Source: Anaerolineae bacterium (GTDB taxonomy: Bacteria; Chloroflexota; Anaerolineae; CG2-30-64-16). From it: a stretch of 64,000 bases of DNA. The stretch is taken from positions 24,284-88,283 of the forward strand of contig DAOTZV010000129.1 of assembly GCA_034434235.1 (NCBI GenBank), read 5' to 3'. The notes beneath the pieces are model-generated. The model saw only the letters and a list, made by a program, of their open reading frames with translations. It ran no database searches and was not told the origin of the DNA. The position numbers were made by a program, and so were the translations under genes. The first letter of the stretch is position 1. Each line of letters begins with the position of its first letter. Positions 2,178 to 61,466 of this stretch are shown here, in pieces.

Positions 2178-3725
2178 ATGGCTGTTGAACGACTTCAGAA
2201 GATCCTGGCGCAGGCCGGCCTGGGCTCTCGCCGCGCGTGCGAAGAGCTGATCACGGCCGGCCGCGTGAAGGTGGATGGCCGCGTGGTGGCCGAGCTGGGC
2301 GCGAAGGTGGACGCCGCCGTGGCCGAGATCACGGTGGACGACCGGCCCGTCCGACGGCAAGCCCTGCGCTACGTCATGTTGCACAAGCCGGCGGGCTACC
2401 TGTCCACGACGGACCCCCGCGCGGCCTATCCCTCTTGGGAAGAGCTGGTGCACACGCCCGAGCGCCTCTTTCCGGTCGGCCGGCTCGATCACGACAGCGA
2501 AGGGTTGCTGCTGCTGACGAACGACGGCGAGCTGGCCCAGCGCCTGTTGCATCCGAAGTACGAGCACCCCAAGACGTACCTGGTGCAGGTGGCCGGCGTG
2601 CCCACCCCGCGCAAGATCCGGCGCCTGCAACACGGCGTGATGCTGGACGACGGCCCGACCGCGCCGGCCGACGTCGAGCTGTTGCGCGAGCCGCCCCCCG
2701 GGTTTCGCTCCGCTGCTTCCGACGTCGGCCGGGGAGGAGCCGAGGCGCGGCCCACCCGCTGGCTCCAGGTGACCCTTTACGAGGGGCGCAAGCGCCAGTT
2801 GCGGCGCATGGTCGCGCTGCTCGGCCATCCGGCGTTGCGGGTCATCCGCATCGGCCTGGGACCGTTGCTCCTGGGCGATCTGCCGCCCGGCCACTGGCGC
2901 GATCTCACGCCGGACGAAGTGCGCGCCCTCCAGGAGGCGGCCCGTCGCGCCCGGCCGGAGGCGCCGGCCACATCACCCAAGAGCGAAAGGAAGAAACAGT
3001 CATTGTTGCCTGCAACGATTGCCATAGACGGCCCGGCCGCCTCGGGCAAGAGCACCATCGGCGGCCGGCTGGCCAGAAAGTACGGCTATCTCTATCTCGA
3101 CACGGGCGTGATGTATCGCGCGGTGGCGGCCGCGGCCCTGGCCCGCGGCATCCCCATCGCCGATGAAGCGGCCGTCACCGCGCTGGCGCGACGGATCGCC
3201 ATCCAGGTTTTGTCGCCCACCGTGGCCGATGGCCGCGATGTGACCGTGCTGGTGGACGGCGAGGACTTCAGTTGGGAGATCCGCAAGCCCGAAGTCGAGC
3301 GCGTGGTGTCGCCCGTGTCGGCCTATGAGGGCGTGCGCGAAGCCATGGTGCAACAACAGCGGCGCATCGCGCGGCAGGGCCCCGTGGTCATGGTGGGCCG
3401 CGATATCGGCACGGTCGTCCTGCCCGACGCCGACCTCAAGATCTATCTCGACGCGACCTTGCGCGAGCGCGCGAACCGGCGCTATCGCGAGCGGCTGGCG
3501 CGCGGGGAGCAGGCCGATTTCGAGCAGATCCTGGCCGACCTGCGCCGTCGCGACGAGATAGATTCGGGCCGCAAGCATTCGCCGCTGATGCCGGCGCCGG
3601 ATGCGATCATGATAGATAGCACGAACCTGTCCATTGACGAGGTCATGGAGCGGGTCGAGGCCCTGGTGGCGCGTTGGGTTGCCGCCCACGCCGATGGAGC
3701 AGAGCAGCACCATGGCAAAGCGTAG
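2178..3725 (+). CDS. Fusion protein: N-terminal RsuA/RluB-type pseudouridine synthase (S4 domain) plus C-terminal cytidylate kinase
   Basis: One uninterrupted 515-aa ORF. The N-terminus has S4-like LGSRRACEELITAGRVKVDGRVV and the RluB core HDSEGLLLLTNDGELAQRL. After residue ~280 come IAIDGPAASGKST (P-loop), LYLDTGVMYRAVA and the Cmk lid. Confidence 0.8.
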   Translation: MAVERLQKILAQAGLGSRRACEELITAGRVKVDGRVVAELGAKVDAAVAEITVDDRPVRRQALRYVMLHKPAGYLSTTDPRAAYPSWEELVHTPERLFPVGRLDHDSEGLLLLTNDGELAQRLLHPKYEHPKTYLVQVAGVPTPRKIRRLQHGVMLDDGPTAPADVELLREPPPGFRSAASDVGRGGAEARPTRWLQVTLYEGRKRQLRRMVALLGHPALRVIRIGLGPLLLGDLPPGHWRDLTPDEVRALQEAARRARPEAPATSPKSERKKQSLLPATIAIDGPAASGKSTIGGRLARKYGYLYLDTGVMYRAVAAAALARGIPIADEAAVTALARRIAIQVLSPTVADGRDVTVLVDGEDFSWEIRKPEVERVVSPVSAYEGVREAMVQQQRRIARQGPVVMVGRDIGTVVLPDADLKIYLDATLRERANRRYRERLARGEQADFEQILADLRRRDEIDSGRKHSPLMPAPDAIMIDSTNLSIDEVMERVEALVARWVAAHADGAEQHHGKA

Positions 3726-4413
3726 ACGTCGGATCCCGCCCGGGCGCTATTTCTGGGGCCTGGTCCTGCGCTTCTTGATCTGGCTTTTCGTCAGGGTCGA
3801 GATGCGGGGGCTGGAGAACCTCCCGCGGCGCGGTCCCGGCATCATCTATTATAACCACATCCATTGGCTCGACCCGGTCTTGATCAGCGGCAAGCTATCG
3901 CGCTACAACGTCCCTCTCACCAAGATCGAGGCCGCCTCCTGGCCGGTGGTCGGCTTTCTGTTGAAGGGCTATCACGTCATCTTCATCCGCCGCGGCACGG
4001 TGGATCGCCGCGCGTTGACCGCCACCTGGCAGGTGTTGGCCGACGGCGACATCTCCGTCATCTCGCCCGAGGGGACGCGCAGCCCCGACGGGACGCTGAA
4101 GCTGGCCAAAGAGGGGTTGGCCTTTGTCGGCCGCCGCGCGGCCGACGCCTGGTGGATTCCCTGCGCTGTCACCGGCACGCCGAAGTTCCGCTTCTCCATC
4201 CCGCTCATCAAGCGCACGCCGGTGACCCTGACCTTCGGCCGGCCGTTCCGGGTGCGCTGGCCCGAAGCTCAGCCCGAAAGCGCGAGTCGCGAGATGATGC
4301 GCGCGGTCACCGACGAGGCGATGGCCCAGCTTGCCGCGCTCCTGCCGGCCCACATGCGCGGGGACTATGCCGACGCCGATCCATCCCGGCAGCAGTGGAT
4401 CGAGTTTCTGTAA
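3712..4413 (+). CDS. plsC: 1-acyl-sn-glycerol-3-phosphate acyltransferase (PlsC family)
   Basis: HX4D motif NHIHWLDP and PEGTRS motif; N-terminal TM segment; ATG at 3712 overlaps the cmk stop by 14 nt. Confidence 0.8.
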   Translation: MAKRRRRIPPGRYFWGLVLRFLIWLFVRVEMRGLENLPRRGPGIIYYNHIHWLDPVLISGKLSRYNVPLTKIEAASWPVVGFLLKGYHVIFIRRGTVDRRALTATWQVLADGDISVISPEGTRSPDGTLKLAKEGLAFVGRRAADAWWIPCAVTGTPKFRFSIPLIKRTPVTLTFGRPFRVRWPEAQPESASREMMRAVTDEAMAQLAALLPAHMRGDYADADPSRQQWIEFL

Positions 4414-6280: not shown

Positions 6281-6316
6281 GCGCACAGGATCCGGTTGAC
6301 GTATCCTCTATAAGCT

Positions 6317-6342
6317 GGGGGACGCCGGTCGCAGACCGGCTG
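6317..6342. repeat. Conserved hairpin element family B (GGGGGACGCCGGTCGCAGACCGGCTG) downstream of glmS
   Basis: A 26-nt identical copy lies at 28209-28234 and a related inverted copy at 59361-59396; the core is a 7-bp stem GCCGGTC/GACCGGC with a 3-nt loop. Confidence 0.55.
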
Positions 6343-6364
6343 GAAGCGGTTCCAATCCTCATAT

Positions 6365-6418
6365 GAACAAGGCCGTCCTGAGCGCTATCGTTGCTCAGGA
6401 CGGCCTTGTTTGTCTTCC
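6365..6418. terminator. Bidirectional intrinsic-terminator-like hairpin between convergent glmS and oppF
   Basis: Perfect 18-bp inverted repeat AACAAGGCCGTCCTGAGC/GCTCAGGACGGCCTTGTT followed by TGTCTTCC. Confidence 0.7.
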
Positions 6419-14242: not shown

Positions 14243-17200
14243 ATGGGAATTTCAGTGCGCGCTTTGGCAATTGCGGTCATTTCCGCTGTGCTCGTTGTGG
14301 CCGGCGCGGGCGCCCTGGTGTGGGCGACGGGCACACAGGATGGCACCGGCGCAATTGCTGGCGTCGTCTTCTTTGACAAAGATGCCGACGCTGCGCGCGG
14401 ACCGGCCGAAGGCGGACTTGCCGGAGTGACGGTGGAACTGCGCGATGGCGTGACCGGCGGCCAGGCCGTGCATCGCTTTGTGCAAACCGCCTCTGACGGC
14501 TCCTTCAGCTTCGCGGAGCTGAGCGCTGGCGCCTACACGGTCGCCGTCCTCCCGGCCGATCCCTTCACGGCCACGACGACCAGCCCCGTAGCGGTGGTGG
14601 TCGACTCTGCGCCTGTCGTCGGCGTGGATTTCGGCGCCACGCTTCTCCAGACTCTCACCGGCACCGAATTCAACGATCTGAACGGCGATGGCGCCAAGGG
14701 ACCACGCGAGCCGGGCATCGCCGGCTGGCTGATCCAGGTCTTCGACGATGTCAACGGCAACGGCCTGGTCGACATGGGTGAGGCGTTGTTGGGCTCGGCC
14801 GTTAGCGACCACCAGGGAAACTGGAAGGTGTCCGGGCTGTTGCCGGGCCGCCGCGTGGTCGTGCGTCGGCCTCCGGCCGGCGCAGAAGCGATGGCCGATC
14901 CGCTCTCGCTGACGGCCGAGGAGGCCGGCGGCGCCGGCCATCTGTGGAACGGCCGGCCCGAGGCGCGGACGGCGCCTGCCTCTGTCAATGCCGATGCCGC
15001 GGCCTATGTGCCGGGCGAGCTGTTGGTGGGCGTTCAGCCGGGCCTCTCGCTGGCGCGCGTCGCCGAGATCTTCCGGGATCTCGGTCTCGCGATCAGAGAG
15101 CCGTTGGGCGGAGATGCCTATCGGGTGGCGACGACCGAGGACGCGGCCGATGCCGCGCTGGATGCGTTGAAACGCCTGCCCGAGGTGCGTTACGCTGAGC
15201 GCAACGGCCTCGTCAGCGCGCTGCTCACGCCGACCGAGCCGCTCTTCAACGATCCGTTTTACATCTTTGCGCCGCAGACGATCAACGCGCCGACGGCCTG
15301 GGACATCTCCACCGGTTCGCCGGAGGTGATCGTTGCCATCGTGGATTCGGGCATCTCGCTTTCGCATCCTGAGTTTGCCGGTCGTCTGGTTGCCGGCTGG
15401 GACTACGTCAACGGCGACAGCGATCCGTCCGATGACAACGGCCATGGCACACACGTGGCCGGCATCGTGGCCGCAGCCATGAACGGCGAGGGTGTGGTCG
15501 GCATCGCGCCGAACGTCAGGCTGATGCCCGTCAAGATCCTCAACGCATCGAAGACCGCCACCTGGGCCAACACGGCCTTGGGGATCCGCTATGCGGCCGA
15601 CCACGGCGCGAAGGTGATCAACCTGAGCATGGGAGGCACTTCCTACTCGGCCGCGCTTCAGGATGCCATCCGTTACGCCGCCGGCAAGGGGGTCGTCATA
15701 GTCGCTGCTGCGGGCAATCAGGGGAGCAGCGGGCCGTTCTATCCGGCCTATTTCGAGGAGACGATCGCCGTCGGCGCGACGGACGAACACGACGAATATT
15801 GGACGATCTCCAACTATGGCAACTGGGTGGACGTAACGGCGCCCGGCGCCAGCATCTACAGCACCTGGTGGACGGCGGACAACCCCAATACCTATGGCTT
15901 CATGAGCGGGACTTCGATGGCGGCCCCGCACGTCAGCGGCCTGGCCGCCCTTCTGCTTTCGTATCGGCCCCAGCTTTCGGCGGCCGATGTGCGCGCCATC
16001 ATCCAGCAGACCGCGGTGGACAAGGGCGCGGCCGGCTTCGATATTTACTACGGTTGGGGCCGCATTGACGCAGGCGCGGCCATGACACTGGCGACGACCT
16101 GGATCCCCTACACTCCCACGCCGACGGCCACGGCGACGGCCACGCCGTCGGCCACGCCGACAGCGACGCCAACGAATACACCGACACCGACGTCGACGAA
16201 TACGCCGACAGCGACGCCAACGAATACACCGACACCGACGGCAACGAATACGCCGACGCCCACGCCGACCGCCACGCCGACGGCAGTGCCGTATCTGAAG
16301 CGGGTCAACGCGGGCGGGGCGAGCTTCACCGACAGCCTGGGCCAGGTGTGGGATCCGGATCAGGCGTATGCGACCGGTGGCTGGGGCTATGTGAGCGGCA
16401 CGGCCAAATCCTCGACCACTGCGGTGAACGGCACGGTGGACGACCTGCTCTACCAGAAGTACCGCGAGGGGATGACCGCATATCAATTCACGGTGCCGAA
16501 CGGTCAGTACCAGGTGACGCTCAAATTCGCCGAGTTCGCCGCCAGCAGTTCGAAGCAGCGCATCATGAAGATCACGATCGAGGGCGTGGTGGTGGAAAGC
16601 GCGCTCAACGTGCTGGCGTTGGCCGGCAAGGCCACGGCTTTCGATCGCACCTACACGACGACGGTGGCCGACGGCATACTGAACATCGCCTTTGCGCAGA
16701 ACGGCGGCAGCTACAAGCCGATGGTGTCGGCCATCGAAGTGAAAAGCGCCGAGGCCGGGCCGACCGGCACGGGCACCGAGCCGACGCCGATAGCAACAAA
16801 TGTGCCGATCGCAACGGCAACGAATACGCCGACCCCGACGCCGACGCCAACCCGGCCGGCCTACAGCGTGCGCGTGGACGCGGGTGGCCCGACCTTTACC
16901 GATGGCCAGGGGCTCACCTGGCAGGCCGACCAGGCCTTCAGCGCGGGGTCGTGGGGCTACATCGGTGGGTCGCCCGGCTCCTCGACGGTCGCAGTGGCCG
17001 GCACGAAGGACGACCTGCTGTTCCAGAAGTACCGACAGGGGATGTCGGAGTTCAGGTTCACGGTGCCGAACGGCAGCTATCAGGTGCAGTTGCGGTTCGC
17101 CGAGTTCGCGGCCACCGGGCCGGGCCAGCGGGTGATGGAGATCACCCTGGAAGGGACGCCGGTGGAGAGCGCGTTGGACGTGTATGCGGCGGCCGGCGGC

Positions 17201-17320
17201 GCGGCCAGGGCGCTGGACAGGACTTACCAGGTGACGGTGAACGACGGCATCCTGAACATCGGCTTTGCTCAGGTCGGGGGCGCCCTGCCGCCAATGGTGT
17301 CGGCTATCGAAATTAAATAG
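14243..17320 (+). CDS. Secreted S8 (subtilisin-like) serine peptidase with N-terminal carboxypeptidase-regulatory-like domains, a Pro/Thr linker and two C-terminal malectin-like carbohydrate-binding domains
   Basis: Signal peptide; catalytic triad motifs AIVDSGI (Asp), HGTHVAGI (His) and [11 protein letters not shown] (Ser). PT-rich linker [27 protein letters not shown]. Two copies of a ~150-aa module (YQKYREGM...FAEF...ILNI.FAQ.GG...PMVSAIE[VI]K) resembling malectin/di-glucose-binding domains. Confidence 0.85.
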
Positions 17321-40035: not shown

Positions 40036-41094
40036 TCACACCTGGCCGATGGCCGGATCGTCCAGCCGCACGCGGCGCCCCTCGCGCGTCGAGACATAGG
40101 TGGCGAGCACCATGCGGAGCACGGCGCGGCCTTCTTCGGCGGTTGCAATGGGAGGCCGCCGGCCGGCGAAGAAGTCGGCCAGGGGACCGGCCAGGCCGGC
40201 GATGCGCGCGCTGTGGTTGGCGGGGCTGGGGATGGCGCTCGGCGTCCAGTCCTTCTTGTCGAGCGTGTACCACTTCTGCCCGACCGCGCCGGCCGGCCGG
40301 GGCACGTTGCAGCTCGGCACGTCGCCGTAGTTCTGGATCAGGGTGCCCTTCTCGCCGATCACCTCTACCGTGTTTTCGGCCGCCACGCAGGTGAAGGAGC
40401 AGACGACCTCGGCCAACATGCCGTCGGCGTAGCGGTAGATGGCGACGCCGTTGTCGTTGGGCGCCCGCGGATTCAAGAGCGAGGCGATCTCGGCCGTCAC
40501 GGTCTCCGGCTCGCCCAGCAGCCAGTAGATGAAGTCCACCGGGTGCGCGGCGTCGTCGGCCCAGATGTCGCGGTTGAGCTGCGGGTCGAAGTGCCACATG
40601 CCGGCGACATCCCAGAGCTGGGTGGGCAATCCGTGCCGTCGGCGCACCATGAAGATCTTGCCGAGCGCGCCGCTCTCGATGATCTGCTTGATCTCGATGT
40701 TTTGTGGGTCCACGCGCATCTGCCAGGCCATGGTGAAGGGCACGCGATGCCGCTCGACCGCGGCGACGATGCGGTCGGCCTGGGCCATGGTGAGCGCGAT
40801 CGGCTTTTGCAGCGCGATCATCTTGCCCGCGGCGGCCGCCTTCTCGACCACATCGGCATGCATGGAGGTTTCGACGCCGATGACGACCGCCGGCATGTCG
40901 GGCCGGGCCAGGAACGCGTCCAGGTCGGCGTAGCCGGCGACGCCGAACTGGTCGCAGTTCTTCTGCAGCCGGGCTGCGTCGTGATCCCACCCCGCGACCA
41001 GGTTGATCTCCAGGCCGGGGTTCTGTTTCCACTGATGGCAATACATCCCGACATGCCCGTGGGCGAAGCCGAGGACGCCGAGGTTGATGGTCAT
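40036..41094 (-). CDS. Gfo/Idh/MocA-family NAD(P)-dependent oxidoreductase
   Basis: N-terminal Rossmann fold MTINLGVLGFAHGHVGMY..., about 350 aa; start at the ATG after GGAG. The track ORF extends upstream through the heptamer array in an out-of-context frame. Confidence 0.8.
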   Translation of the reverse strand: MTINLGVLGFAHGHVGMYCHQWKQNPGLEINLVAGWDHDAARLQKNCDQFGVAGYADLDAFLARPDMPAVVIGVETSMHADVVEKAAAAGKMIALQKPIALTMAQADRIVAAVERHRVPFTMAWQMRVDPQNIEIKQIIESGALGKIFMVRRRHGLPTQLWDVAGMWHFDPQLNRDIWADDAAHPVDFIYWLLGEPETVTAEIASLLNPRAPNDNGVAIYRYADGMLAEVVCSFTCVAAENTVEVIGEKGTLIQNYGDVPSCNVPRPAGAVGQKWYTLDKKDWTPSAIPSPANHSARIAGLAGPLADFFAGRRPPIATAEEGRAVLRMVLATYVSTREGRRVRLDDPAIGQV

Positions 41095-41106
41095 GGTGGA
41101 TGCTCC

Positions 41107-41160
41107 GTGAAACGTAAAACGTAAAACGTAAAACGTAAAACGTGAAGCGTGAAATGTGAG
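41107..41160. repeat. Tandem heptamer array (R)AAACGT x7 (mRNA-sense ACGTTTY) filling the intergenic 5' leader of the Gfo/Idh/MocA gene
   Basis: Read directly: GAAACGT AAAACGT AAAACGT AAAACGT AAAACGT GAAGCGT GAAATGT; it ends 13 nt before the start codon. Confidence 0.7.
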
Positions 41161-41168
41161 CAGTTTGG

Positions 41169-43175
41169 TTACTGGATCTCGACCTCCCCACACCGGATCT
41201 GGCCCGGCGCGCCGGGCGCTTCGAGGATGAGCCGATAGGTTCCGCGCGGGGTCACGGGGTTCAGGTTGACGTCGTGATGGCTGCGCACGATCTCGCCGGC
41301 CACCCAGCGGTCGGCCGGCCAGAGGCCGAACGCGTCGTTCGGCCGGGCCATGCTCTCGCCCCACACCTGGCCCTGCGCGTCCACCAGCCGGAAGCGCGGG
41401 CGGAGCTCGCCGGCGGCCGGCCGGTCGCCGGGCCGCCAGTAGCTCGTTACGTGGATCCATGCGCTCGGCGGATGGAACAGGTCGTCGCGCGGGCGCAAGG
41501 CGGCCGGATCATACAGACAGGCCAACGGCTGCACGCCGTCCAGGGCCGGCCAATCGCTGCGAGACGGCACGTTCGACGGCAGGTCGGCCAGCCGATAGCG
41601 CTGGTCGTAGACGTGGATGGCGATCCCCGGCGGGAATACCTCGGTGATCAGCGGATAGCGCGCGGCGAACCAGCCCAACACCACGTTGTTCGGGTCCAGC
41701 TCCTGATGGTGCGACTGTACCACCCACACCGCGTCGAAGGGGGCCAGCCCCGCCAGCGGCCCCTCCACCTGGTCCGCATCGCGGATCCGGTCGGTGAACG
41801 GGACGAAGATGTCCTGCGGGCCGCGGAAGTAGCGCCGGAACGCGATCTGGACGTAGTCGGGCTGGATCAGGATGGCGTCATGGGGGCCGGCGTGCGCCTG
41901 CACGAACGCCGCGGCCTCGCGCCATGCCTCGCGGCGATTCTGCGGCGCCCAATCGTAGGGCAGCGCGGCCGCCGTCGTCGCGAAGATCAGGCCGGCCGCC
42001 GCCAACCCGACCGGCCGGCGCCAGGCCCACAGCCGGTCGAGCGCCCGGCCCAGCGCCACGCAGAGCGCCGGCGCCAGGGCGATCTGGTAGCGCGTTTCGG
42101 CGAAGGTGCGGCTGTCGCGGCTCAGCAGGGCGCCGCCGATCAGGATCACGACGAGCGGCCAGATGAGGATGTAGAGTCCGCCACTTCGCCGGTTGCCGCG
42201 ATCGGCCGGCAGGAAGCAGCCGAGGAGGGCCAGCGCTCCCATCCCCGCGGCCAGGATCGTCGTCAGGCGGGCGTCCCATGCGGGCCAGCCGAGCGTGTAG
42301 GCCCTCAGCATCGTCGCGAGGGGCGCCCACATTCCCTCGAACGGCCGACCCGGTACGGCCTCGGCACCGCTCACCCGCCACGCCGACCAGGCCAGCGGCA
42401 GGAAGAGCACTGCGGCGATGCCCAGGCCCAGGACGCCCAGCCAGAAATCGCGATCCGCGTCCCGTTCGCCCCGCCGCGTCCAGCGCGCCATCAGCAGCCA
42501 GAGCCCGGCCACCGGCAGCAGGAAGGCACTGTAGAGATAGCTGTAGAGCGCGGCCGCGAAGCCGCCGCTGAGCAACAGCAGGGCGAGCGAGGACGGCCCC
42601 CCCCTCCCCCCAACTTTGGGGGGCGCCCCCCCTTCCCCCCAATCTTGGGGGGCCAGGGGGGCGGCCCCCCCCTCCCCCCCAATGTTGGGGGGCCAGGGGC
42701 GCGGGGGCGTGCGCCATGCGCCATGCGCCGCCCGCAGGAGGCCGTAAAGCCCCACCAGCGCGAAGGCCGTCGCCGGCATGAACATGCGCGCTTCCTGGCT
42801 ATACCACACCAGGAACGGGTTGATCGCCAGCAGGAGCGCGGCGAACGCGGCCCCGCGTGGCCCGCTCAGCCGCCGGCCGATTCCGTAGAGCGGCAACACG
42901 GCCAGCGCGCCGATCAGCGCGCCGAGGGAACGCACGGCCAGATCGCTCCCGCCGACCAGCGCCGTCCAGCCGTGCAGCAGGAGGTAATAGAGCGGCGGGT
43001 GCTTGTCCTGGACGAGCGCCATGCCCACGCGCCAGATCTCGCCGGCCGGCCGACCGGCCCAGTACGTACTGACGACCTCGTCGAACCACAGGCTATGGTA
43101 CGTGAGATGGTAGAAGCGCACGCCGAGCGCCAGGACCAGGATCCAGCTCAGCGGATGGCACAGTAATCGCCTCAT
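41169..43175 (-). CDS. Membrane glycosyltransferase, family 39 / PMT-ArnT-like (dolichyl-phosphate-mannose-protein mannosyltransferase superfamily)
   Basis: N-terminal multi-TM region with the family-typical WFDEVVSTYWAG...DKHPPLYYLL, and a large C-terminal soluble domain. It contains a low-complexity Pro/Gly insertion encoded by the repeat at 42596-42716. Confidence 0.7.
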   Translation of the reverse strand: MRRLLCHPLSWILVLALGVRFYHLTYHSLWFDEVVSTYWAGRPAGEIWRVGMALVQDKHPPLYYLLLHGWTALVGGSDLAVRSLGALIGALAVLPLYGIGRRLSGPRGAAFAALLLAINPFLVWYSQEARMFMPATAFALVGLYGLLRAAHGAWRTPPRPWPPNIGGEGGAAPLAPQDWGEGGAPPKVGGRGGPSSLALLLLSGGFAAALYSYLYSAFLLPVAGLWLLMARWTRRGERDADRDFWLGVLGLGIAAVLFLPLAWSAWRVSGAEAVPGRPFEGMWAPLATMLRAYTLGWPAWDARLTTILAAGMGALALLGCFLPADRGNRRSGGLYILIWPLVVILIGGALLSRDSRTFAETRYQIALAPALCVALGRALDRLWAWRRPVGLAAAGLIFATTAAALPYDWAPQNRREAWREAAAFVQAHAGPHDAILIQPDYVQIAFRRYFRGPQDIFVPFTDRIRDADQVEGPLAGLAPFDAVWVVQSHHQELDPNNVVLGWFAARYPLITEVFPPGIAIHVYDQRYRLADLPSNVPSRSDWPALDGVQPLACLYDPAALRPRDDLFHPPSAWIHVTSYWRPGDRPAAGELRPRFRLVDAQGQVWGESMARPNDAFGLWPADRWVAGEIVRSHHDVNLNPVTPRGTYRLILEAPGAPGQIRCGEVEIQ
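42596..42716. repeat. Three tandem copies of a palindromic G/C-run element (C7-8 T C6-7 / AAYNTT / G6) inside the GT39 coding sequence
   Basis: Read directly: CCCCCCCCTCCCCCC-AACTTT-GGGGGG, CCCCCCCTTCCCCCC-AATCTT-GGGGGG, CCCCCCCCTCCCCCCC-AATGTT-GGGGGG. Translated on the gene strand as ...PPNIGGEGGAAPLAPQDWGEGGAPPKVGGRGG.... Confidence 0.7.
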
Positions 43176-56494: not shown

Positions 56495-56932
56495 TTATGC
56501 GTCATTCATCGGTCGGGCTGATCGGTTGCACAATCCCCGCGCTCGATACACCTCGGCCGCCTCGCGCACGAACGCGGCCGTCTCGTGCGCCTGGAACTCG
56601 TCGGCCAGGCGGGCCGCCAGCGCCAGCATCTCTTCGTATGTGGCACGGCCCGGCCGCAGCGTCTCGTACATGCGCAGCAGCTCGGCGTTGGGGACGGCGG
56701 TCAGCTCGGCCGCGCGGCGCAGGTTGGCCGCCAGCTGCGGAAAGCCGGCCCGCGCGGCGATGGCGGCCTGCGCGCGCAACGCCTCGGCCGTGATGCGCAG
56801 GTCATCGTCGGTCAGTTCGCCCGCGGCCAACCGCTCCAGCGTGATCTCGTCCAGCGGCCGGCCGCTCGCCGCCCGCAACTCTTCACCTGCGTTCTCCGTC
56901 AACGGATAAACACTCTCCATGCTGATCTCCAA
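56495..56932 (-). CDS. pduE: Coenzyme B12-dependent diol/glycerol dehydratase small (gamma) subunit (PduE/DhaB3-like)
   Basis: ...LRMYETLRPGRATYEEMLALAARLADEFQAHETAAFVREAAEVYRARGL aligns with the PduE C-terminus (IYNALRPFRS...AAFVRESAEVYQQR). Confidence 0.75.
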   Translation of the reverse strand: MEISMESVYPLTENAGEELRAASGRPLDEITLERLAAGELTDDDLRITAEALRAQAAIAARAGFPQLAANLRRAAELTAVPNAELLRMYETLRPGRATYEEMLALAARLADEFQAHETAAFVREAAEVYRARGLCNRSARPMNDA

Positions 56933-56968
56933 CCCCCAACCCCCAATCCCTAACCCCTATCCCCCGCC

Positions 56969-59287
56969 TCACTCCGGCTCCCAATCGAACCACAGCTCCT
57001 GCGGCGGCCTGTCGGCGACCTCGTCGGTCTCGCGGCGGTGCAGGAGCGCGGTCTTGACGATCAGGCGCAATCGCGCCCAGTTATCAATCTTCACCCCCAC
57101 CGGCGCCGGCGGGACGCCTTTGGCGTAGCGCGCCGCGTTTCGGCCGATCGCCCGGTACGTCTCCAGCGTCAGGCTCGGCGATTGCGGAAAGAGCTCCAGG
57201 TTGTTGAGCCGGGCCAACCCGCGCTTGTGGATGACGGCCGTGCCGCGCGATTGCAGGCCGATGGCGATGCCCGATCCGCTGAGCTCTGCGCCCGCGTAGC
57301 CGATGGCCGCCAGGTCGGAGCTGCGGTACACCTTCACCACGCGGGCGGTCAACCCTTCGTCGGCCACGCCCGCCAGGATGGCCGCCAACACCGCCTCGTG
57401 CTCCAGCCCCCCGATGGTGCGGGTGAGCGCCGCGTTGAACGCCGGGCCGACCGCGACGATCACTTCGGGTCGGGTGCCCGGCCGGGCCGGACCCAGCTCC
57501 ACCAGCTTCGGCGAGGCCGGGCCGACGTGCGGCGCGACGAATTGGCGCGGGGACTGCGCCTGGCGGATGGCCTGGAGCCGGGCCCAGCGTTCCCCTGCCA
57601 GCCGATAGCCGGTGCCCGGGCCGGTGTAGTCGTTCGGATCGTTGATCGCGCTGAGGACACGGAAGCGACCGGCCCCTCCGGCCGTCTCTGCTGCACGGGG
57701 AGAGGAAGTCCGGCTCTCCCCTCTCCTTGCAGGAGAGGGGGCGGGGGAGAGGTCGAAGATCGCGGCCGGCTGCAGATAGTCCCCCGCCACGCGCTGGCGG
57801 CCCATCTCCAGGATGTTGGCGGCCACATCTGCAAATCCGCGACGGCGCAGCGCGTCGGCCACGGCCAACATGCCCAGATCGCTCGCCAGGAAGCGGTCGG
57901 CCGCGGCCAGGTCGGCCACGGCGTCGCGGTCGGGCATGTCGTCGCTGCTGTGCGCCGTCGTGGCCGCGGCCACCTCGTCGTCGCTGATCGGCGGCAGGCC
58001 CAGCTCCGCGTAGACCGCCTGGATCGCCCGGCCGGCCCGCTCGCGCACCGCCAGGGCCGCCTTTTCGGTGATGGGGACAATCCCGCCGTCCACCTGCATG
58101 TCGCGCTGGAGCACGTTCCAGTCGTCGAAGTCCTCGGCGTCGAAGTTGCCGCCGCCGAACAGATTGTCGCGCTTGGGCACCGCGCTGTAGCCGGAGCAGA
58201 TGAAGTCGGTGCCGGGGATGAACTGGAGCATGAGCTTGGCCGATTTGCGCATGGTCGAGTGCGACGCGAGCGCGTCGTTGCCCGAGGCGCATTCCAGGCC
58301 GAGCATGGAGGCGAGCAGGTTCTCGGCGAGCACCGCGCGCACGCCGGCCGGCAGCGCTTCGGGCAAGGCGATGCATGAGATCGAGCCGTTCTGCACCCCC
58401 TGGCTGCCGGCGCCCTTCGTCACCAGCAGGCAACGCGCCTCCAGGTAGAGCATCGAGCAGCGTTCGGCGTGGCCCATCAGCGCCTCAGAGCCGGTGCCCG
58501 AGGTGAAGCGCACCTTGATTCCGCGCGATGCGTAGGCCGCGGCCAGGAACGCCTTCGACCAGGGGGTGTCGTCGCCGTCCACGAAGGCCCGTTCGGTGCC
58601 GTAGACCGAGAGGGTCTCGGCGTAGGTGGTCAACCCCTTCAGCGCGATCCGCAGGCCCAACGCCTCCTCGACCGCGCATTGGGTGAGGACGCCGCCGCGG
58701 CCCGTTTGCGTGCCGACGAGGACGGCCAGCGCGTTGAGCGGCGCGTTACGGGCCACGCGCACGGTCGTTTCGACCTCCGCGAAGCCGCGCAGGGCCGCCT
58801 CGGCCGCGTCGGCCGCGAGGAGCGCGGGATGCTCCTTCCAGTTGGTCACGTGCGCCTGGTTGGCGGGCGTCCGCCGGACGCGCATCTTGGCGAGGCCGAT
58901 CATCATCTCGAGCACGTTCATGTGGCGGATGATCTCGACCAGCTTGGCCGGGGTGCAACCGGCCGCCAGCCGGCGCACGGCCGCCTGCGGCACGTTGATG
59001 TCGGCCAACATGCGCGCGATCTGGAGGGACGGCGTCGCCATGGCCTCTTCGGCCACGGCCAGATCGAGCGCGTGGTCGGCGATGAAGATATCCAGGCTAT
59101 CGAACTCGGCCCGCGGCTTGCCGTCCATCTCGACCACGCGGCCGGCCTCCAGGCGCAGGGACGGCTGCGGGTCGTAGGGGCTATCGGCGACGATCAGCCC
59201 GGCCTCGGGCCATGGCTCGACGAACGTCTCTTTGTTGATGTCGCGTTCGGCCAGGATGGCGAAACGACGGGATGGGTTGGGTGTCAT
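56969..59287 (-). CDS. pduCD: Fused large (alpha) plus medium (beta) subunits of coenzyme B12-dependent diol/glycerol dehydratase (PduC-PduD fusion), with a ~30-aa low-complexity insertion
   Basis: Residues 1-~560 match PduC/DhaB1 closely, including QAHVTNWKEHP, DGDDTPWSKAFLA, GSQGVQNGSISC and FDDWNVLQRD. Residues ~580-772 match PduD (EVIVAVGPAFNA..., GLTARVVKVYRSSDLAAIGYAGAELSGSGIAIGLQSRGTAVIHKRGL...LELFPQSPSLTLETYRAIGRNAARYAKG). Confidence 0.85.
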   Translation of the reverse strand: MTPNPSRRFAILAERDINKETFVEPWPEAGLIVADSPYDPQPSLRLEAGRVVEMDGKPRAEFDSLDIFIADHALDLAVAEEAMATPSLQIARMLADINVPQAAVRRLAAGCTPAKLVEIIRHMNVLEMMIGLAKMRVRRTPANQAHVTNWKEHPALLAADAAEAALRGFAEVETTVRVARNAPLNALAVLVGTQTGRGGVLTQCAVEEALGLRIALKGLTTYAETLSVYGTERAFVDGDDTPWSKAFLAAAYASRGIKVRFTSGTGSEALMGHAERCSMLYLEARCLLVTKGAGSQGVQNGSISCIALPEALPAGVRAVLAENLLASMLGLECASGNDALASHSTMRKSAKLMLQFIPGTDFICSGYSAVPKRDNLFGGGNFDAEDFDDWNVLQRDMQVDGGIVPITEKAALAVRERAGRAIQAVYAELGLPPISDDEVAAATTAHSSDDMPDRDAVADLAAADRFLASDLGMLAVADALRRRGFADVAANILEMGRQRVAGDYLQPAAIFDLSPAPSPARRGESRTSSPRAAETAGGAGRFRVLSAINDPNDYTGPGTGYRLAGERWARLQAIRQAQSPRQFVAPHVGPASPKLVELGPARPGTRPEVIVAVGPAFNAALTRTIGGLEHEAVLAAILAGVADEGLTARVVKVYRSSDLAAIGYAGAELSGSGIAIGLQSRGTAVIHKRGLARLNNLELFPQSPSLTLETYRAIGRNAARYAKGVPPAPVGVKIDNWARLRLIVKTALLHRRETDEVADRPPQELWFDWEPE
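57670..57752. repeat. In-frame palindromic insertion inside the dehydratase gene (…CTCCCCTCTCC-TTGCA-GGAGAGGGGG…)
   Basis: Inverted repeat read directly; encodes DLSPAPSPARRGESRTSSPRAAETAGGAGR, which is absent from canonical PduC at this position. Confidence 0.55.
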
Positions 59288-59352
59288 GGGTAGTCGAGTA
59301 GTCGAGTAGTCAGATAGTCAAGTAGTCAGATAGTCGGGTAATCGGACAGTCA
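59288..59352. repeat. Tandem octamer array (GAGTAGTC-like x8; mRNA-sense GACTACTC) directly abutting the dehydratase start codon
   Basis: Read directly: GGTAGTC GAGTAGTC GAGTAGTC AGATAGTC AAGTAGTC AGATAGTC GGGTAATC GGACAGTC; no canonical SD between the array and the ATG. Confidence 0.7.
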
Positions 59353-59396: not shown

Positions 59397-59524
59397 TCTG
59401 AGCCTGAATGCGTGGTCTACTGAGTCTTGTGTGCTTTGGCGGCCCGGACTGCGTTGAGATAGGTCTCTTCGGTCTTGAGCACGTGTTCGAGCACCTGCAT
59501 CGTATCAAGCCTCGGGATTGCTTT

Positions 59525-60277
59525 CTACGCCTTCCCCATCCTGCGCAGGTTGTCCAGGCATCGCGCCACCACTTCCAGCGGCGGGTACTTGTAGCTTTCC
59601 TGCTCGACGATGTACCACTCGGTGCCGCCCTGCGTCTCGCACAGCTCGAAGACGCGTTGCCACGGCACATCCCCTTCGCCCAGGATCGCCAGCGGATCGG
59701 TCGCCGAGTACTCCTTGAGGTGCACGGTGATCGCCCGGCCGGGGTAGCGCGCCAGGTAGGGGATCGGGTCGCCGCCGCCGTGCAGCGCGTTGCCGATGTC
59801 CACCTGCATGATCACCTCTTTGCGGGTGTTGCTGAAGAAGGTATCCCACGGCAGCTCGCCTTCCAGCGGCTGGAATTCGATGGCGTGATTGTGATAGCCG
59901 ACGAGCATGCCGTAGGGCCGGAGCCGCTCGGCGATCTCGTTGAAGATGCCGGCCGTGCGCAGCCACGCGGCGCGCGAGCTGCGATATTCCTCGGCCAGCG
60001 CCGGCACCACCAGGTACTTGTTGCCGAGGATCTGGTTGAACTCGACGGTGCGGAGCAGCTCATCGCCCAAGAGGGTGTCGAGCCGGATGTGCGTGCCGCA
60101 GCACTTCAAGCCCAGGTCGTCGAGCATGGCGCGCAGTTCCCTGGCCGTGCGATCGTAGTAGCCGGCGAACTCAACGCCGACGTAGCCCATCTTCGCCACC
60201 GCGGCCAACGTGCCGGGCAGATCCGCCGCGCACTCGTGGCGAACGGAATAGAGTTGGAGTCCGATTGGGATGGTCAT
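59525..60277 (-). CDS. Sugar phosphate isomerase/epimerase (xylose-isomerase-like TIM barrel)
   Basis: Family-typical blocks IGLQLYSV, GYHNHAIEF and the metal-ligand pattern; SD GGAGG before the ATG. Confidence 0.7.
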   Translation of the reverse strand: MTIPIGLQLYSVRHECAADLPGTLAAVAKMGYVGVEFAGYYDRTARELRAMLDDLGLKCCGTHIRLDTLLGDELLRTVEFNQILGNKYLVVPALAEEYRSSRAAWLRTAGIFNEIAERLRPYGMLVGYHNHAIEFQPLEGELPWDTFFSNTRKEVIMQVDIGNALHGGGDPIPYLARYPGRAITVHLKEYSATDPLAILGEGDVPWQRVFELCETQGGTEWYIVEQESYKYPPLEVVARCLDNLRRMGKA

Positions 60278-60294
60278 GGGATGTCCTCCGATAG

Positions 60295-60365
60295 TCAAAC
60301 GTCAAACGTAAAACGTCAAACGTAAAACGTCAAACGTGAAACGTGAGACGTTTTACGTTTTACTT
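60295..60365. repeat. Tandem heptamer array (C/A)AAACGT x8 followed by two inverted copies (ACGTTTT), occupying the whole intergenic leader of the isomerase gene
   Basis: Read directly: CAAACGT CAAACGT AAAACGT CAAACGT AAAACGT CAAACGT GAAACGT GAGACGT TTTACGT TTTAC; same unit as the array at 41107-41160. Confidence 0.7.
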
Positions 60366-61466
60366 TTCACGATACTCTATCCCCGCCGCCTCGATCTCCG
60401 CAGCCGTCACTTCGCGGCCGAGGTGGCTGGAGAGATAGATGCCCTCGGTGATCAGGGCGGTCTTGAGCGCCAGGCCGGCCGTGTCGAGCAGCGGCACGCG
60501 GCCGAGCTGCGCCCAAACCCAGTGGCGCTGCGAATGGTCGAAGCCGGCCTCGAGCGGGTTGCACTGATGCCAGCGCCAGTCGGCCTGTTTGATGTCGAAC
60601 GTGGCGTTCATCTCCATGTCCGACAGGGTGGTGAAGTAGCCGAACGGCTCGACCCGCAACCCGGCGTGCGAGCCGAACACGCGGTCGCCGTCCGAGCTGT
60701 CGGCGTGGATCGCCCATGCTTCTTCGATGAAGTAGGTGATCCCGCCGGCCAGGCGCACCAGGCCCATGCCGAGCTCCTCGACGTTGTAATTGCCCGAGGC
60801 CCGGCGGTCGGGGTACATGTTGTCGAGCATCTGATAGGTGCGGCCCGAGACGGTCTCGACGGCCGGATTGCCGAGCAACCACATCATGCGCGCGATGTGA
60901 TAGACCGCCATGTCCACCAGCGCGCCGCCGCCGGCCATCTCTTTCTGGACGAAGGCCGGCGTGCCGTAGCCGTCCACCCACGGCCGGCCGCGGCGGCGGT
61001 AATGCGACGACTTGGCGTAGTAGATCTGGCCGAGCTGGCCTTCGTCAATCATCCGTTTGGCCGCGCGCGCCTCCGGCGTGTAGAGCGTGTTGAGCTGGAT
61101 GTGGAGCATCCGGCCGGTGCGCCGGGCGGTGTCGTACATCGCCTTTGCCTCTGAGTATACCCAAGACATCGGCTTTTCGCAATAGACGTTCTTGCCCGCC
61201 TCCAGCGCGGCGATGGTCACCGCCGCGTGCAATCGGTTGTGCAACGCCACGTCTACCGACTGGATGTCGTCTCGTCGGAGCAGCTCCCGGTAGTCGCTGT
61301 AAACCGCCACCTCCGGGCCAATGGCCTGGGCCACCCGCCGCGCTTCGTCCTCGCGCAGGTCGCACACGGCCACGATCTCGGCTTCGGGGACCTCTTTGTA
61401 GCGCTCGACGTGGACCTTGCCGATCTGGCCCACGCCGATGATGCCGATGCGGACTTTGTCGGTCAT
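60360..61466 (-). CDS. Gfo/Idh/MocA-family NAD(P)-dependent oxidoreductase
   Basis: N-terminal Rossmann fold MTDKVRIGIIGVGQIGKVHVERY, EKP motif (YCEKPMS), 368 aa. Confidence 0.8.
   Translation of the reverse strand: MTDKVRIGIIGVGQIGKVHVERYKEVPEAEIVAVCDLREDEARRVAQAIGPEVAVYSDYRELLRRDDIQSVDVALHNRLHAAVTIAALEAGKNVYCEKPMSWVYSEAKAMYDTARRTGRMLHIQLNTLYTPEARAAKRMIDEGQLGQIYYAKSSHYRRRGRPWVDGYGTPAFVQKEMAGGGALVDMAVYHIARMMWLLGNPAVETVSGRTYQMLDNMYPDRRASGNYNVEELGMGLVRLAGGITYFIEEAWAIHADSSDGDRVFGSHAGLRVEPFGYFTTLSDMEMNATFDIKQADWRWHQCNPLEAGFDHSQRHWVWAQLGRVPLLDTAGLALKTALITEGIYLSSHLGREVTAAEIEAAGIEYREK

Follow-up and report, generated by a model that had tools for sequence, protein, structure and literature searches.

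Introduction

Tandem repeats of 7-nt units lying between bacterial genes have been described in several systems, and it is against these that we consider an array of ACGTTTY units (array 2, 60296..60351) in a 64,000-nucleotide stretch of Anaerolineae bacterium DNA (GenBank assembly GCA_034434235.1, contig DAOTZV010000129.1; the whole stretch is called the window below), where, in an operon of Chloroflexota type (Anaerolineae/Thermoflexales-like), it fills the entire intercistronic spacer between a Gfo/Idh/MocA oxidoreductase gene and a xylose-isomerase-like gene. The genes at the locus are on the minus strand, and array sequences are quoted in gene sense; a sister array of the window, at 41109..41157, is referred to as array 1. 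As argued below, the array is probably a heptanucleotide simple-sequence repeat (SSR), of the kind known as short tandemly repeated repetitive (STRR) sequences or intergenic heptamer direct repeats, resized by slippage, and neither a regulon operator nor a canonical terminator.

The TAACTGA heptamer direct repeats of marine Beggiatoaceae, Cyanobacteria, and Bacteroidetes, which are found just upstream of start codons (MacGregor 2015, PMC4679880), resemble the ACGTTTY arrays in consisting of tandem 7-nt units (2 to several tens, mostly intergenic and in forward orientation), in lying a few nt from the start codon, where they often replace or abut the Shine-Dalgarno (SD) sequence, and in having unrelated downstream genes, strain indels in 7-nt steps, and a patchy phylogenetic distribution. 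In contrast to the TAACTGA repeats, the unit here is ACGTTTY, the host is a member of Chloroflexota, the SD is kept after the array, inverted copies and an antisense mode overlapping stop codons are prominent, and the repeat is associated with neither an alternate RpoC nor a candidate binding protein; for the TAACTGA repeats, S1, Csp, or CsrA has been proposed as the binding factor (PMC4679880), and a binding factor has likewise been speculated for the Nostoc heptamers. The G-rich heptamers GGGAATC (Xanthomonas) and GGGGAYT (Nostoc) follow the same strand and position rule as the arrays described here (Rehm et al. 2015, PMC4692102), the purine-rich strand being found 0-50 bp after the stop codon, including overlap with it, and its complement just before the start codon, and they also share inverted, stem-loop-capable arrangements and much length variation between close relatives; they are, however, G-quadruplex-forming, whereas ACGTTTY is A/T-rich and forms no G-quadruplex; their closer analogue is the GGGGTTR array of the window (56929..56965). 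Cyanobacterial STRR heptanucleotide repeats (Calothrix/Nostoc) are cited in PMC4692102. They are like the window arrays in that several heptamer units are dispersed intergenically in filamentous bacteria, including within-operon spacers, and differ from them in the units themselves, no homology being expected for units of 7 nt. We know of no description of STRR sequences in Chloroflexota; those of cyanobacteria were reportedly described by Mazel et al. in 1990.

Among heptamer arrays that precede a start codon, the one whose mechanism has been studied best is the (ATCTTTC)n array in the 5' untranslated region (UTR) of Haemophilus influenzae hmw1A; it forms a hairpin with a purine-rich arm, and this hairpin is cut by RNase III (PMC12721329). 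The window locus shares with it a pyrimidine-rich heptamer array in the leader, a complementary purine-rich arm, and a hairpin (a predicted one in the window), but the hmw1A array has at least 11 units, is phase-variable, and pairs with a non-repeat G-rich arm, whereas that of the window has 8 interrupted units, invariant in the populations sampled, and a predicted stem of 14-16 bp. Within Chloroflexota, heptamer-derived tandem repeats have already been noted as the abundant (GATAGRA)n satellites of Chloroflexus aurantiacus (Subirana and Messeguer 2019, PMC6749651), with another unit and with no positional or orientation analysis there. Heptamer over-representation among bacterial SSRs, STRR sequences, TAACTGA repeats, G-rich heptamers, and (GATAGRA)n are thus already published; a search for literal ACGTTTC/ACGTTTT repeat strings found no paper in the library covered.

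The Array and Its Spacer

The upstream cistron of the locus (60360..61466; Pfam GFO_IDH_MocA and C-terminal domains) and the downstream one, encoding a xylose-isomerase-like TIM-barrel protein of the sugar phosphate isomerase/epimerase kind (59525..60277; Pfam AP_endonuc_2, PF01261), are separated by a stop-to-ATG spacer of 82 nt, the length given in the original prediction, which had been made from the letters of the window and its open reading frames (ORFs). From the last codons of the former to the start of the latter, the gene-sense sequence reads ...CGT GAA AAG TAA AACGT AAAACGT CTC ACGTTTC ACGTTTG ACGTTTT ACGTTTG ACGTTTT ACGTTTG ACGTTTG ACTATC GGAGG ACATCCC ATG, so that the spacer is wholly repeat-filled up to its tail. 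The eight direct heptamers and two inverted copies initially claimed resolve into a degenerate ACGTCTC unit (60351..60345) followed by seven perfect ACGTTTY units (60344..60296; ACGTTTC, ACGTTTG, ACGTTTT, ACGTTTG, ACGTTTT, ACGTTTG, ACGTTTG), and into two AAAACGT copies (60361..60348) which, together with a degenerate GAAAAGT (60368..60362) that runs into the last codons of the upstream gene, occupy 60348..60368. The TAA stop codon (60362-60360) of that gene arises at a repeat-unit boundary, and the final ACGT of the inverted copies is at the same time the beginning of the first direct unit. The palindromic junction initially noted at the boundary between inverted and direct copies is there as well, reading AAACGT-CTC-ACGTTT on the gene strand (60353..60339), and forms the tip of a predicted stem-loop. 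What follows the array is a short non-repeat tail, ACTATC-GGAGG-ACATCCC-ATG (60275..60295), with the SD at 60289..60285 and the isomerase start codon at 60277-60275 (the called start matches metagenome gene calls); the 3' end of the array lies 6 nt from the GGAGG ribosome-binding site and 18 nt from the ATG.

Array 1 (ACATTTC ACGCTTC (ACGTTTT)x4 ACGTTTC, 41109..41157, minus strand) has no inverted copies and is followed by ACGGAGC, which contains an SD, by ATCCACC, and by the ATG (41094) of a second Gfo/Idh/MocA gene (40036..41094, by Pfam). As was originally stated, both arrays stand on the same strand upstream of sugar-type genes. The pattern ACGTTTNACGTTT, with at most one mismatch allowed, has 14 matches in the window against 0.08 expected, a number reached by 0 of 100 shuffles, and all 14 are confined to array 2 or array 1. 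Tandem Repeats Finder likewise reports both ACGTTTY arrays as period 7 with 7.3-7.9 copies, where at least three head-to-tail 7-nt copies are what defines the tandem unit of an intergenic heptameric SSR.

Position and Strand Relative to Genes

Array-to-gene distances were taken from gene calls made in all loci gathered, with a caller seeded on amino-acid composition, whose calls in the window agree with the genes verified by Pfam; two others, a greedy longest-ORF caller and a codon model trained purely on the data themselves, were dropped, as both chose shadow ORFs in this 67% GC DNA. In co-directional spacers, the 38 sense arrays (ACGTTTN on the mRNA) lie at a median of 29 nt from the start codon and 68 nt from the stop codon, and 24 of the 38 are within 40 nt of the start, as is typical of TAACTGA repeats; the 37 arrays reading NAAACGT, on the other hand, have a median distance of 7 nt to the stop and of 84 nt to the start that follows, more than half of them (20/37) being within 10 nt of the stop codon or overlapping it (sense versus antisense polarity, Fisher p = 0.0009). 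Of the 20 arrays between convergent genes, 15 are nearer the stop of the gene in which they read NAAACGT, and divergent spacers hold only 4 arrays. Inverted partners in the order 5'-(NAAACGT)n-spacer-(ACGTTTN)m-3' accompany 20 of the 123 arrays, the reverse order being seen in 3 of 123, and the window array, with its succession of stop codon, inverted units, direct units, and SD, is a compact form of this general layout. The original prediction had named a ubiquitous element without positional bias, similar to repetitive extragenic palindromic (REP) sequences, as what would speak against a regulatory signal; the arrays are ubiquitous indeed, but the absence of bias is not what was found.

The same polarity is followed by units of other sequence, as the mRNA purine fraction of 75 other 7-/8-mer arrays in co-directional spacers is 0.42 for start-proximal and 0.60 for stop-proximal ones (p = 6.5e-5), and the strand and position rule of the Xanthomonas and Nostoc G-rich heptamers thereby extends to unrelated units in another phylum. 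Reading-frame content offers a plausible cause. The ACGTTTY strand holds no ATG or GTG, its C and T units have no stop codons (the G variant contains TTG), and the RAAACGT strand carries TGA or TAA; purine-rich units could therefore abut or replace a stop codon, and would be harmful before start codons because of GTG and SD-like strings, while pyrimidine-rich C/T units, being open in all frames and devoid of start codons, would be tolerated before a ribosome-binding site and not at a gene end. A register between heptamer phase and start codon, suggested by the array-1 orthologues (ACGGAGC plus a 7-nt spacer), was considered and rejected, no phase having been found: the array-to-ATG distance modulo 7 is flat over 29 arrays.

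The chain of events we would propose starts with replication slippage, by which arrays would arise and be resized in 7-nt steps; reading frames, along with any spurious start or SD-like sequences, would then come under selection, which would filter the orientation and extent of the arrays, so that these might expand until touching the stop codon on one side and the SD on the other, and the resulting array would be co-transcribed with its operon.

Distribution, Unit Diversity, and Turnover

A scan of one genome per GTDB species, in which four consecutive ACGTTTN units were required, returned at least 117 stretches, which, together with the spacer location and the second array of the window, depict a dispersed non-coding repeat. 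Among the matches listed, 65 of the 117 stretches (at least 56%) bear a Chloroflexota label, with Anaerolineae, Thermoflexales, Caldilineae, Ardenticatenaceae, and Chloroflexia represented, the other carriers among these matches being scattered Bacteroidota, Verrucomicrobiota, Acidobacteriota, a Desulfococcaceae genome, and others. Several arrays may be present in one metagenome-assembled genome (MAG), six loci in CAZOAL01 for example, and the ACGTTTY arrays are often mixed with, or adjoined by, related units (ACGCATC, ACGTATC, ACGGATC) and unrelated ones (AGATTTC, GGATGTT, and others). A census by Tandem Repeats Finder over 818 kb of carrier loci, with at least three copies required and units of the ACGTTTY type (ACGTTT) left out, gave 122 arrays of period 7, 33 of period 8, 14 each of periods 9 and 14, and 9 of period 6; period 7 is thus over-represented in these loci, a sample ascertained by the repeat. 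As many as 102 distinct units occur among the period-7 arrays, so that what the arrays have in common is their period and not their sequence.

Comparison with relatives indicates how quickly such arrays come and go. The exact xylose-isomerase-like protein is encoded on 18 metagenome contigs, and the closest named genome is that of 'Anaerolineae bacterium Prado095' (GCA_025454565.1), where the isomerase orthologue (88% identity) has another upstream gene and a 39-nt spacer with no array. At locus L211, which falls into the same 90% cluster and keeps the order of the Gfo, isomerase, and dehydratase genes, the spacer is 210 nt long and also has no array, nor is one present upstream of the L126 isomerase orthologue (78% identity); array 2 is therefore a recent, lineage-specific feature. 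The spacer before the dehydratase large-subunit gene of the same operon holds YTGACTAY octamers in the window, ACGTGARA units in L211, and ATCCGTG units with inverted partners in Prado095, that is, three unrelated units at one spacer position in three relatives; in L211, the TGA stop codon of a DinB_2 gene is furnished by the ACGTGARA array, which stops 6 nt short of the dehydratase ATG. The GGGGTTR array, located 3.3 kb downstream of array 2 in the same operon, has 5, 8, or 10 units across metagenome contigs (L118-L122, around 6290-6380).

For the array-1 gene, 80 relatives were fetched from metagenomes. Orthologues at 80-87% identity are preceded by 0, 3, 5, 6, 7, or 8 mixed units (ACGTTTC, ACGCATC, ACGGATC), the CACG-type units standing directly 5' of a conserved CACGGAGCA-N7-ATG, and relatives at 76% identity or below have no units upstream. 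The arrays are kept where the upstream gene encodes a sugar ATP-binding cassette (ABC) permease, as opposed to the glycosyltransferase of the window. The pattern at the array-1 gene is that of fast-evolving, microsatellite-like DNA with some tendency to persist beside a given start codon. In the spacers upstream of several array-1 orthologues (L128-L134, L110), A-rich heptamers (GCAAATG, GCGAATC, GCAAATC) also occur directly after the stop codon of the sugar ABC permease gene, in the stop-proximal half, and the whole spacers therefore consist of a purine-rich and then a pyrimidine-rich array. Other CACG-type arrays with inverted partners were seen in relatives (L124 at 3256..3335 and 3770..3900, L211 at 2760..2804), in the forms (CACGGAG)n...(CTCCGTG)n, (ATCCGTG)n, and (ACGTGARA)n. 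Arrays are thus gained, lost, and resized rapidly between relatives, no variation of the ACGTTTY arrays having been seen within the species-level population, and the sequence comparisons show array 2 as belonging to a fast-turning-over and very large population of period-7 arrays with many units.

Predicted RNA Structure

Folding in silico, which had been suggested as a check, does pair the inverted copies of array 2 with its direct copies, in more than one alternative register: a predicted fold of -39 kcal/mol (z -2.68) was obtained for a 126-nt region and one of -27.2 kcal/mol (z -4.06) for the 71-nt leader, in which the inverted units pair with direct units 5-6, and a local 42-nt hairpin is predicted at -11.1 kcal/mol. 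For array 1 there is no predicted structure (z -0.55) and no promoter- or terminator-like site. By this prediction, the two inverted units of array 2 would pair with direct units into a 14-16-bp A/U-rich stem right after the upstream stop codon, whose most likely role, if it has any, might by analogy with hmw1A be to mark a site between the cistrons for RNA processing or stability, by way of RNase III or of 3'-end protection.

The notion that an array serves to keep the leader unstructured was rejected as an explanation in thermodynamic terms, since the predicted opening energy of the ribosome site is left unchanged by it: for the -18..+6 region of 30 start-proximal arrays, the native mean is 7.18 kcal/mol, as compared with 7.22 after replacement by random sequence of genomic GC, 7.07 after shuffling of the array, and 6.99 kcal/mol after its deletion (Wilcoxon p 0.45-0.90). 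Rfam 15 returned no matches over the whole window at gathering thresholds, and a permissive Rfam scan gave only matches to eukaryotic microRNA hairpins, far below threshold.

Weighing the Alternatives

That the two arrays mark a shared regulon of sugar-metabolism genes, as was originally thought, finds no support. Among the proteins encoded downstream of start-proximal arrays (29 sense-orientation arrays lying at most 45 nt upstream of a start codon), 57 Pfam families occur, none more than twice, and the genes include those for ATP synthase beta, RecF, IspF, PstB, diaminopimelate decarboxylase, D-Tyr-tRNA deacylase, RuvA, formate-tetrahydrofolate ligase, and AnmK, the single MAG CAZOAL01 already having unrelated ones; no sugar regulon is therefore indicated, all the more so as the closest orthologues, in Prado095 and L211, have no array. 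The operator consensus of LacI/Cra-type regulators is a TGAAAC|GTTTCA palindrome of 14-16 bp centred on CG, whereas AAACGT-CTC-ACGTTT has a 3-nt insert and no central CG dyad; nor is there a sigma-70-like promoter site in either ACGTTTY array, and the downstream genes are diverse. A broader version, in which a factor reading a 7-nt register (on RNA an OB-fold protein with a cold-shock domain or of S1 type, or else a HutP-like oligomer; alternatively a regulator that binds DNA) binds (ACGUUUY)n before the SD and tunes the translation of a gene set, seems unlikely to us, even if it would account for the strong preference of arrays for one strand and for positions directly 5' of ribosome-binding sites, for arrays that stay with the Gfo-like gene downstream even where another gene lies upstream, and for the CACG core common to many unit types (ACGTTTC, ACGCATC, ACGTATC, ACGGATC, ACGGAGC). 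The same has been proposed in print for the TAACTGA repeats and the Nostoc heptamers, and Bacillus subtilis CspB is cited in PMC4679880 as binding with one protein to each heptamer unit. Such a sequence-specific factor is disfavoured by the unit diversity and turnover described above: not only are the downstream genes functionally unrelated and the array missing from the closest orthologues, but one spacer position is occupied by a different, unrelated unit in each of three relatives, the carrier loci hold 102 different heptamers, and unrelated units show the same polarity, which points to a cause independent of sequence. It appears quite improbable that the array is an intrinsic terminator or attenuator, in which a stem of inverted copies with one or another set of direct copies, followed by U-rich units, would stop or modulate transcription running on from the Gfo gene to the isomerase gene. 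The hairpin half of this earlier suggestion holds up in silico (z -2.7 to -4.1, stronger than shuffles), with alternative pairing registers and with the purine arm nearly always 5' and the U-rich arm 3' across loci (20 versus 3), but the terminator half does not: the stem is A/U-rich, with G-C in 4 of its 13 pairs, in place of the G+C-rich stem and U-run of a Rho-independent terminator on the gene strand, the gene-strand tail ACGUUUGACGUUUU has no run of five or more U (at most 4 U in 8 nt), and a terminator scan scores the stem only on the plus strand, antisense to the genes. Array 1 has neither partner nor structure, 84% of arrays have no partner, and efficient termination would silence the isomerase and dehydratase genes, because the 18 nt between array and ATG leave no room for a promoter.

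The simple-sequence-repeat reading has difficulties of its own, which also bear on the two remaining alternatives. Array 2 consists of the identical 8 units, apart from one single-nucleotide polymorphism (SNP), in 6 contigs from different metagenomes, in which the octamer array is identical bar one SNP as well, and array 1 is unchanged in 3 contigs; the ACGTTTY array is therefore stable at the population scale. Furthermore, CACG-type arrays persist before one gene across orthologues of 80-87% identity, also where the upstream gene is another, and the junction of array 2 with its tail (60275..60302, ACGTTTG-ACTATCGGAGGACATCCC-ATG) agrees at 16 of 21 positions with ACGTTTG-ACTATCACGGAACATCCT-ATG in the pstA-pstB spacer of the Thermoflexus sp. 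RSWP15 MAG (L073, 3129..3154, minus strand); the two observations hint that a function was selected or copied, and neither is explained by a purely neutral view. To these weaknesses are to be added the dependence of the positional statistics on our own rough gene caller, the ascertainment of the loci by the ACGTTT repeat itself, which makes them anything but an unbiased genome sample, and the circumstance that slippage is what we infer, not what we observed. The stability also speaks against a contingency locus, in which a change in copy number would alter the length of the 5'-UTR or its hairpin and so grade expression in the manner of hmw1A: there is a heptamer SSR in a putative transcribed leader with a complementary arm, the orthologues range from 0 to 8 units, and the GGGGTTR array of the same operon does vary, but the copy-number polymorphism expected of a phase-variable SSR in a population is not seen in the 6 contigs with array 2 or the 3 with array 1, and the run of units is broken up by alternating C, G, and T variants. 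Interruptions of this kind lower the slippage rates of SSRs, and we would give a contingency locus only a slim chance. The pstA-pstB match would also suit a dispersed mobile or copied module, whether similar to REP sequences or miniature inverted-repeat transposable elements (MITEs) or a portable cassette of array plus ribosome-binding site spread by recombination between arrays, and the arrays are indeed extragenic, partly palindromic, and widely dispersed. The match, however, is the sole one among 212 loci, the array-1 junction differs, the arrays have neither terminal repeats nor target duplications nor a fixed length, and length, unit number, and unit sequence vary extremely, with an inverted partner at only 20 of 123 arrays, quite unlike REP sequences or bacterial interspersed mosaic elements (BIMEs), which renders such a module very improbable indeed. 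The Thermoflexus locus was not taken as an orthologue of the array-2 locus, given its place between pstA and pstB.

Implications

With an SSR resized by slippage as the preferred reading, a false lead is removed, in that the two arrays are no evidence of co-regulated sugar-type genes, and Chloroflexota emerge, in the gathered loci, as rich in period-7 arrays. Why heptamers are over-represented in bacteria has been a question since 2007, and this phylum, with thousands of arrays and with cultured thermophilic members suited to such tests, would be a good ground for setting slippage against protein binding. A more far-reaching thought, which we regard as doubtful, is that Chloroflexota, heterocystous cyanobacteria, Beggiatoaceae, and other mostly filamentous lineages have a dedicated process or factor working in a 7-nt register and use heptad arrays for tunable post-transcriptional control genome-wide; it may be a repeat-generating mechanism with a 7-nt step, or it may be an abundant OB-fold (Csp/S1-like) protein coating heptad leaders. 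Were this true, (ACGUUUY)n with its CACG core would be the commonest "word" in Anaerolineae and Thermoflexales, and pyrimidine-rich arrays before ribosome-binding sites and purine-rich ones at stop codons would together constitute a layer of control.

On the practical side, such arrays are a source of breaks in short-read assemblies and of errors in ORF calling. Ends or gaps of several contigs and scaffolds fall within ACGTTTN arrays (L210, which starts 35 nt upstream of the gene, L017, L033, L091, L103, and L082 with an N run), which suggests that these repeats interrupt assembly. Mechanical ORF lists carry the array-1 gene 122 codons upstream through its array (40036..41460), as ACGTTTY units of the C and T type are open in all three sense frames. 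At the array-2 locus, an antisense shadow ORF of 305 aa (59408..60325, plus strand) is longer than the real isomerase gene of 250 aa in this 67% GC DNA. The first positions of one gathered contig (L212, 1..41, ...GATCTACACTCTTTCCCTACACGACGCTCTTCCGATCT) are presumably an Illumina TruSeq adapter and look like an assembly contaminant and not biology.

Other Repeats and Genes of the Window

Two further arrays of the window belong to the same operon as array 2, both on the minus strand. The octamer array (YTGACTAY)x6-7 at 59290..59351, with the units CTGACTAT, CTGACTAC, TTGACTAT, and TCGACTAC, stops 2 nt (CC) short of the ATG (59287) of the diol-dehydratase large-subunit gene, and there is no recognisable SD before that ATG; the tail that follows the ACGTTTG unit of array 2, TTGACTATC, is a single copy of the same YTGACTAY octamer. 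The G-rich array (GGGGTTR)x5 at 56929..56965 lies between the stop codon of the dehydratase large/medium-subunit gene and the ATG (56920) of the small-subunit gene, and G-quadruplex formation by it is possible (cf. the Nostoc GGGGAYT repeats).

The large (PF02286) and medium (PF02288) subunits of this diol/glycerol dehydratase are fused into one 772-aa protein (56969..59287, minus strand), with a separate small subunit (56495..56920); classical Pdu/Dha dehydratases consist of three separate polypeptides. Repeats are found inside genes of the window as well, namely a 29-40-nt repeat of G/C runs (GGGGGGCGGCCCCCCCTCCCCCC...) at 42596..42704 within a PMT_2 glycosyltransferase gene and a 12/48-nt repeat at 16116..16284 within a 1025-aa ORF (14243..17320).

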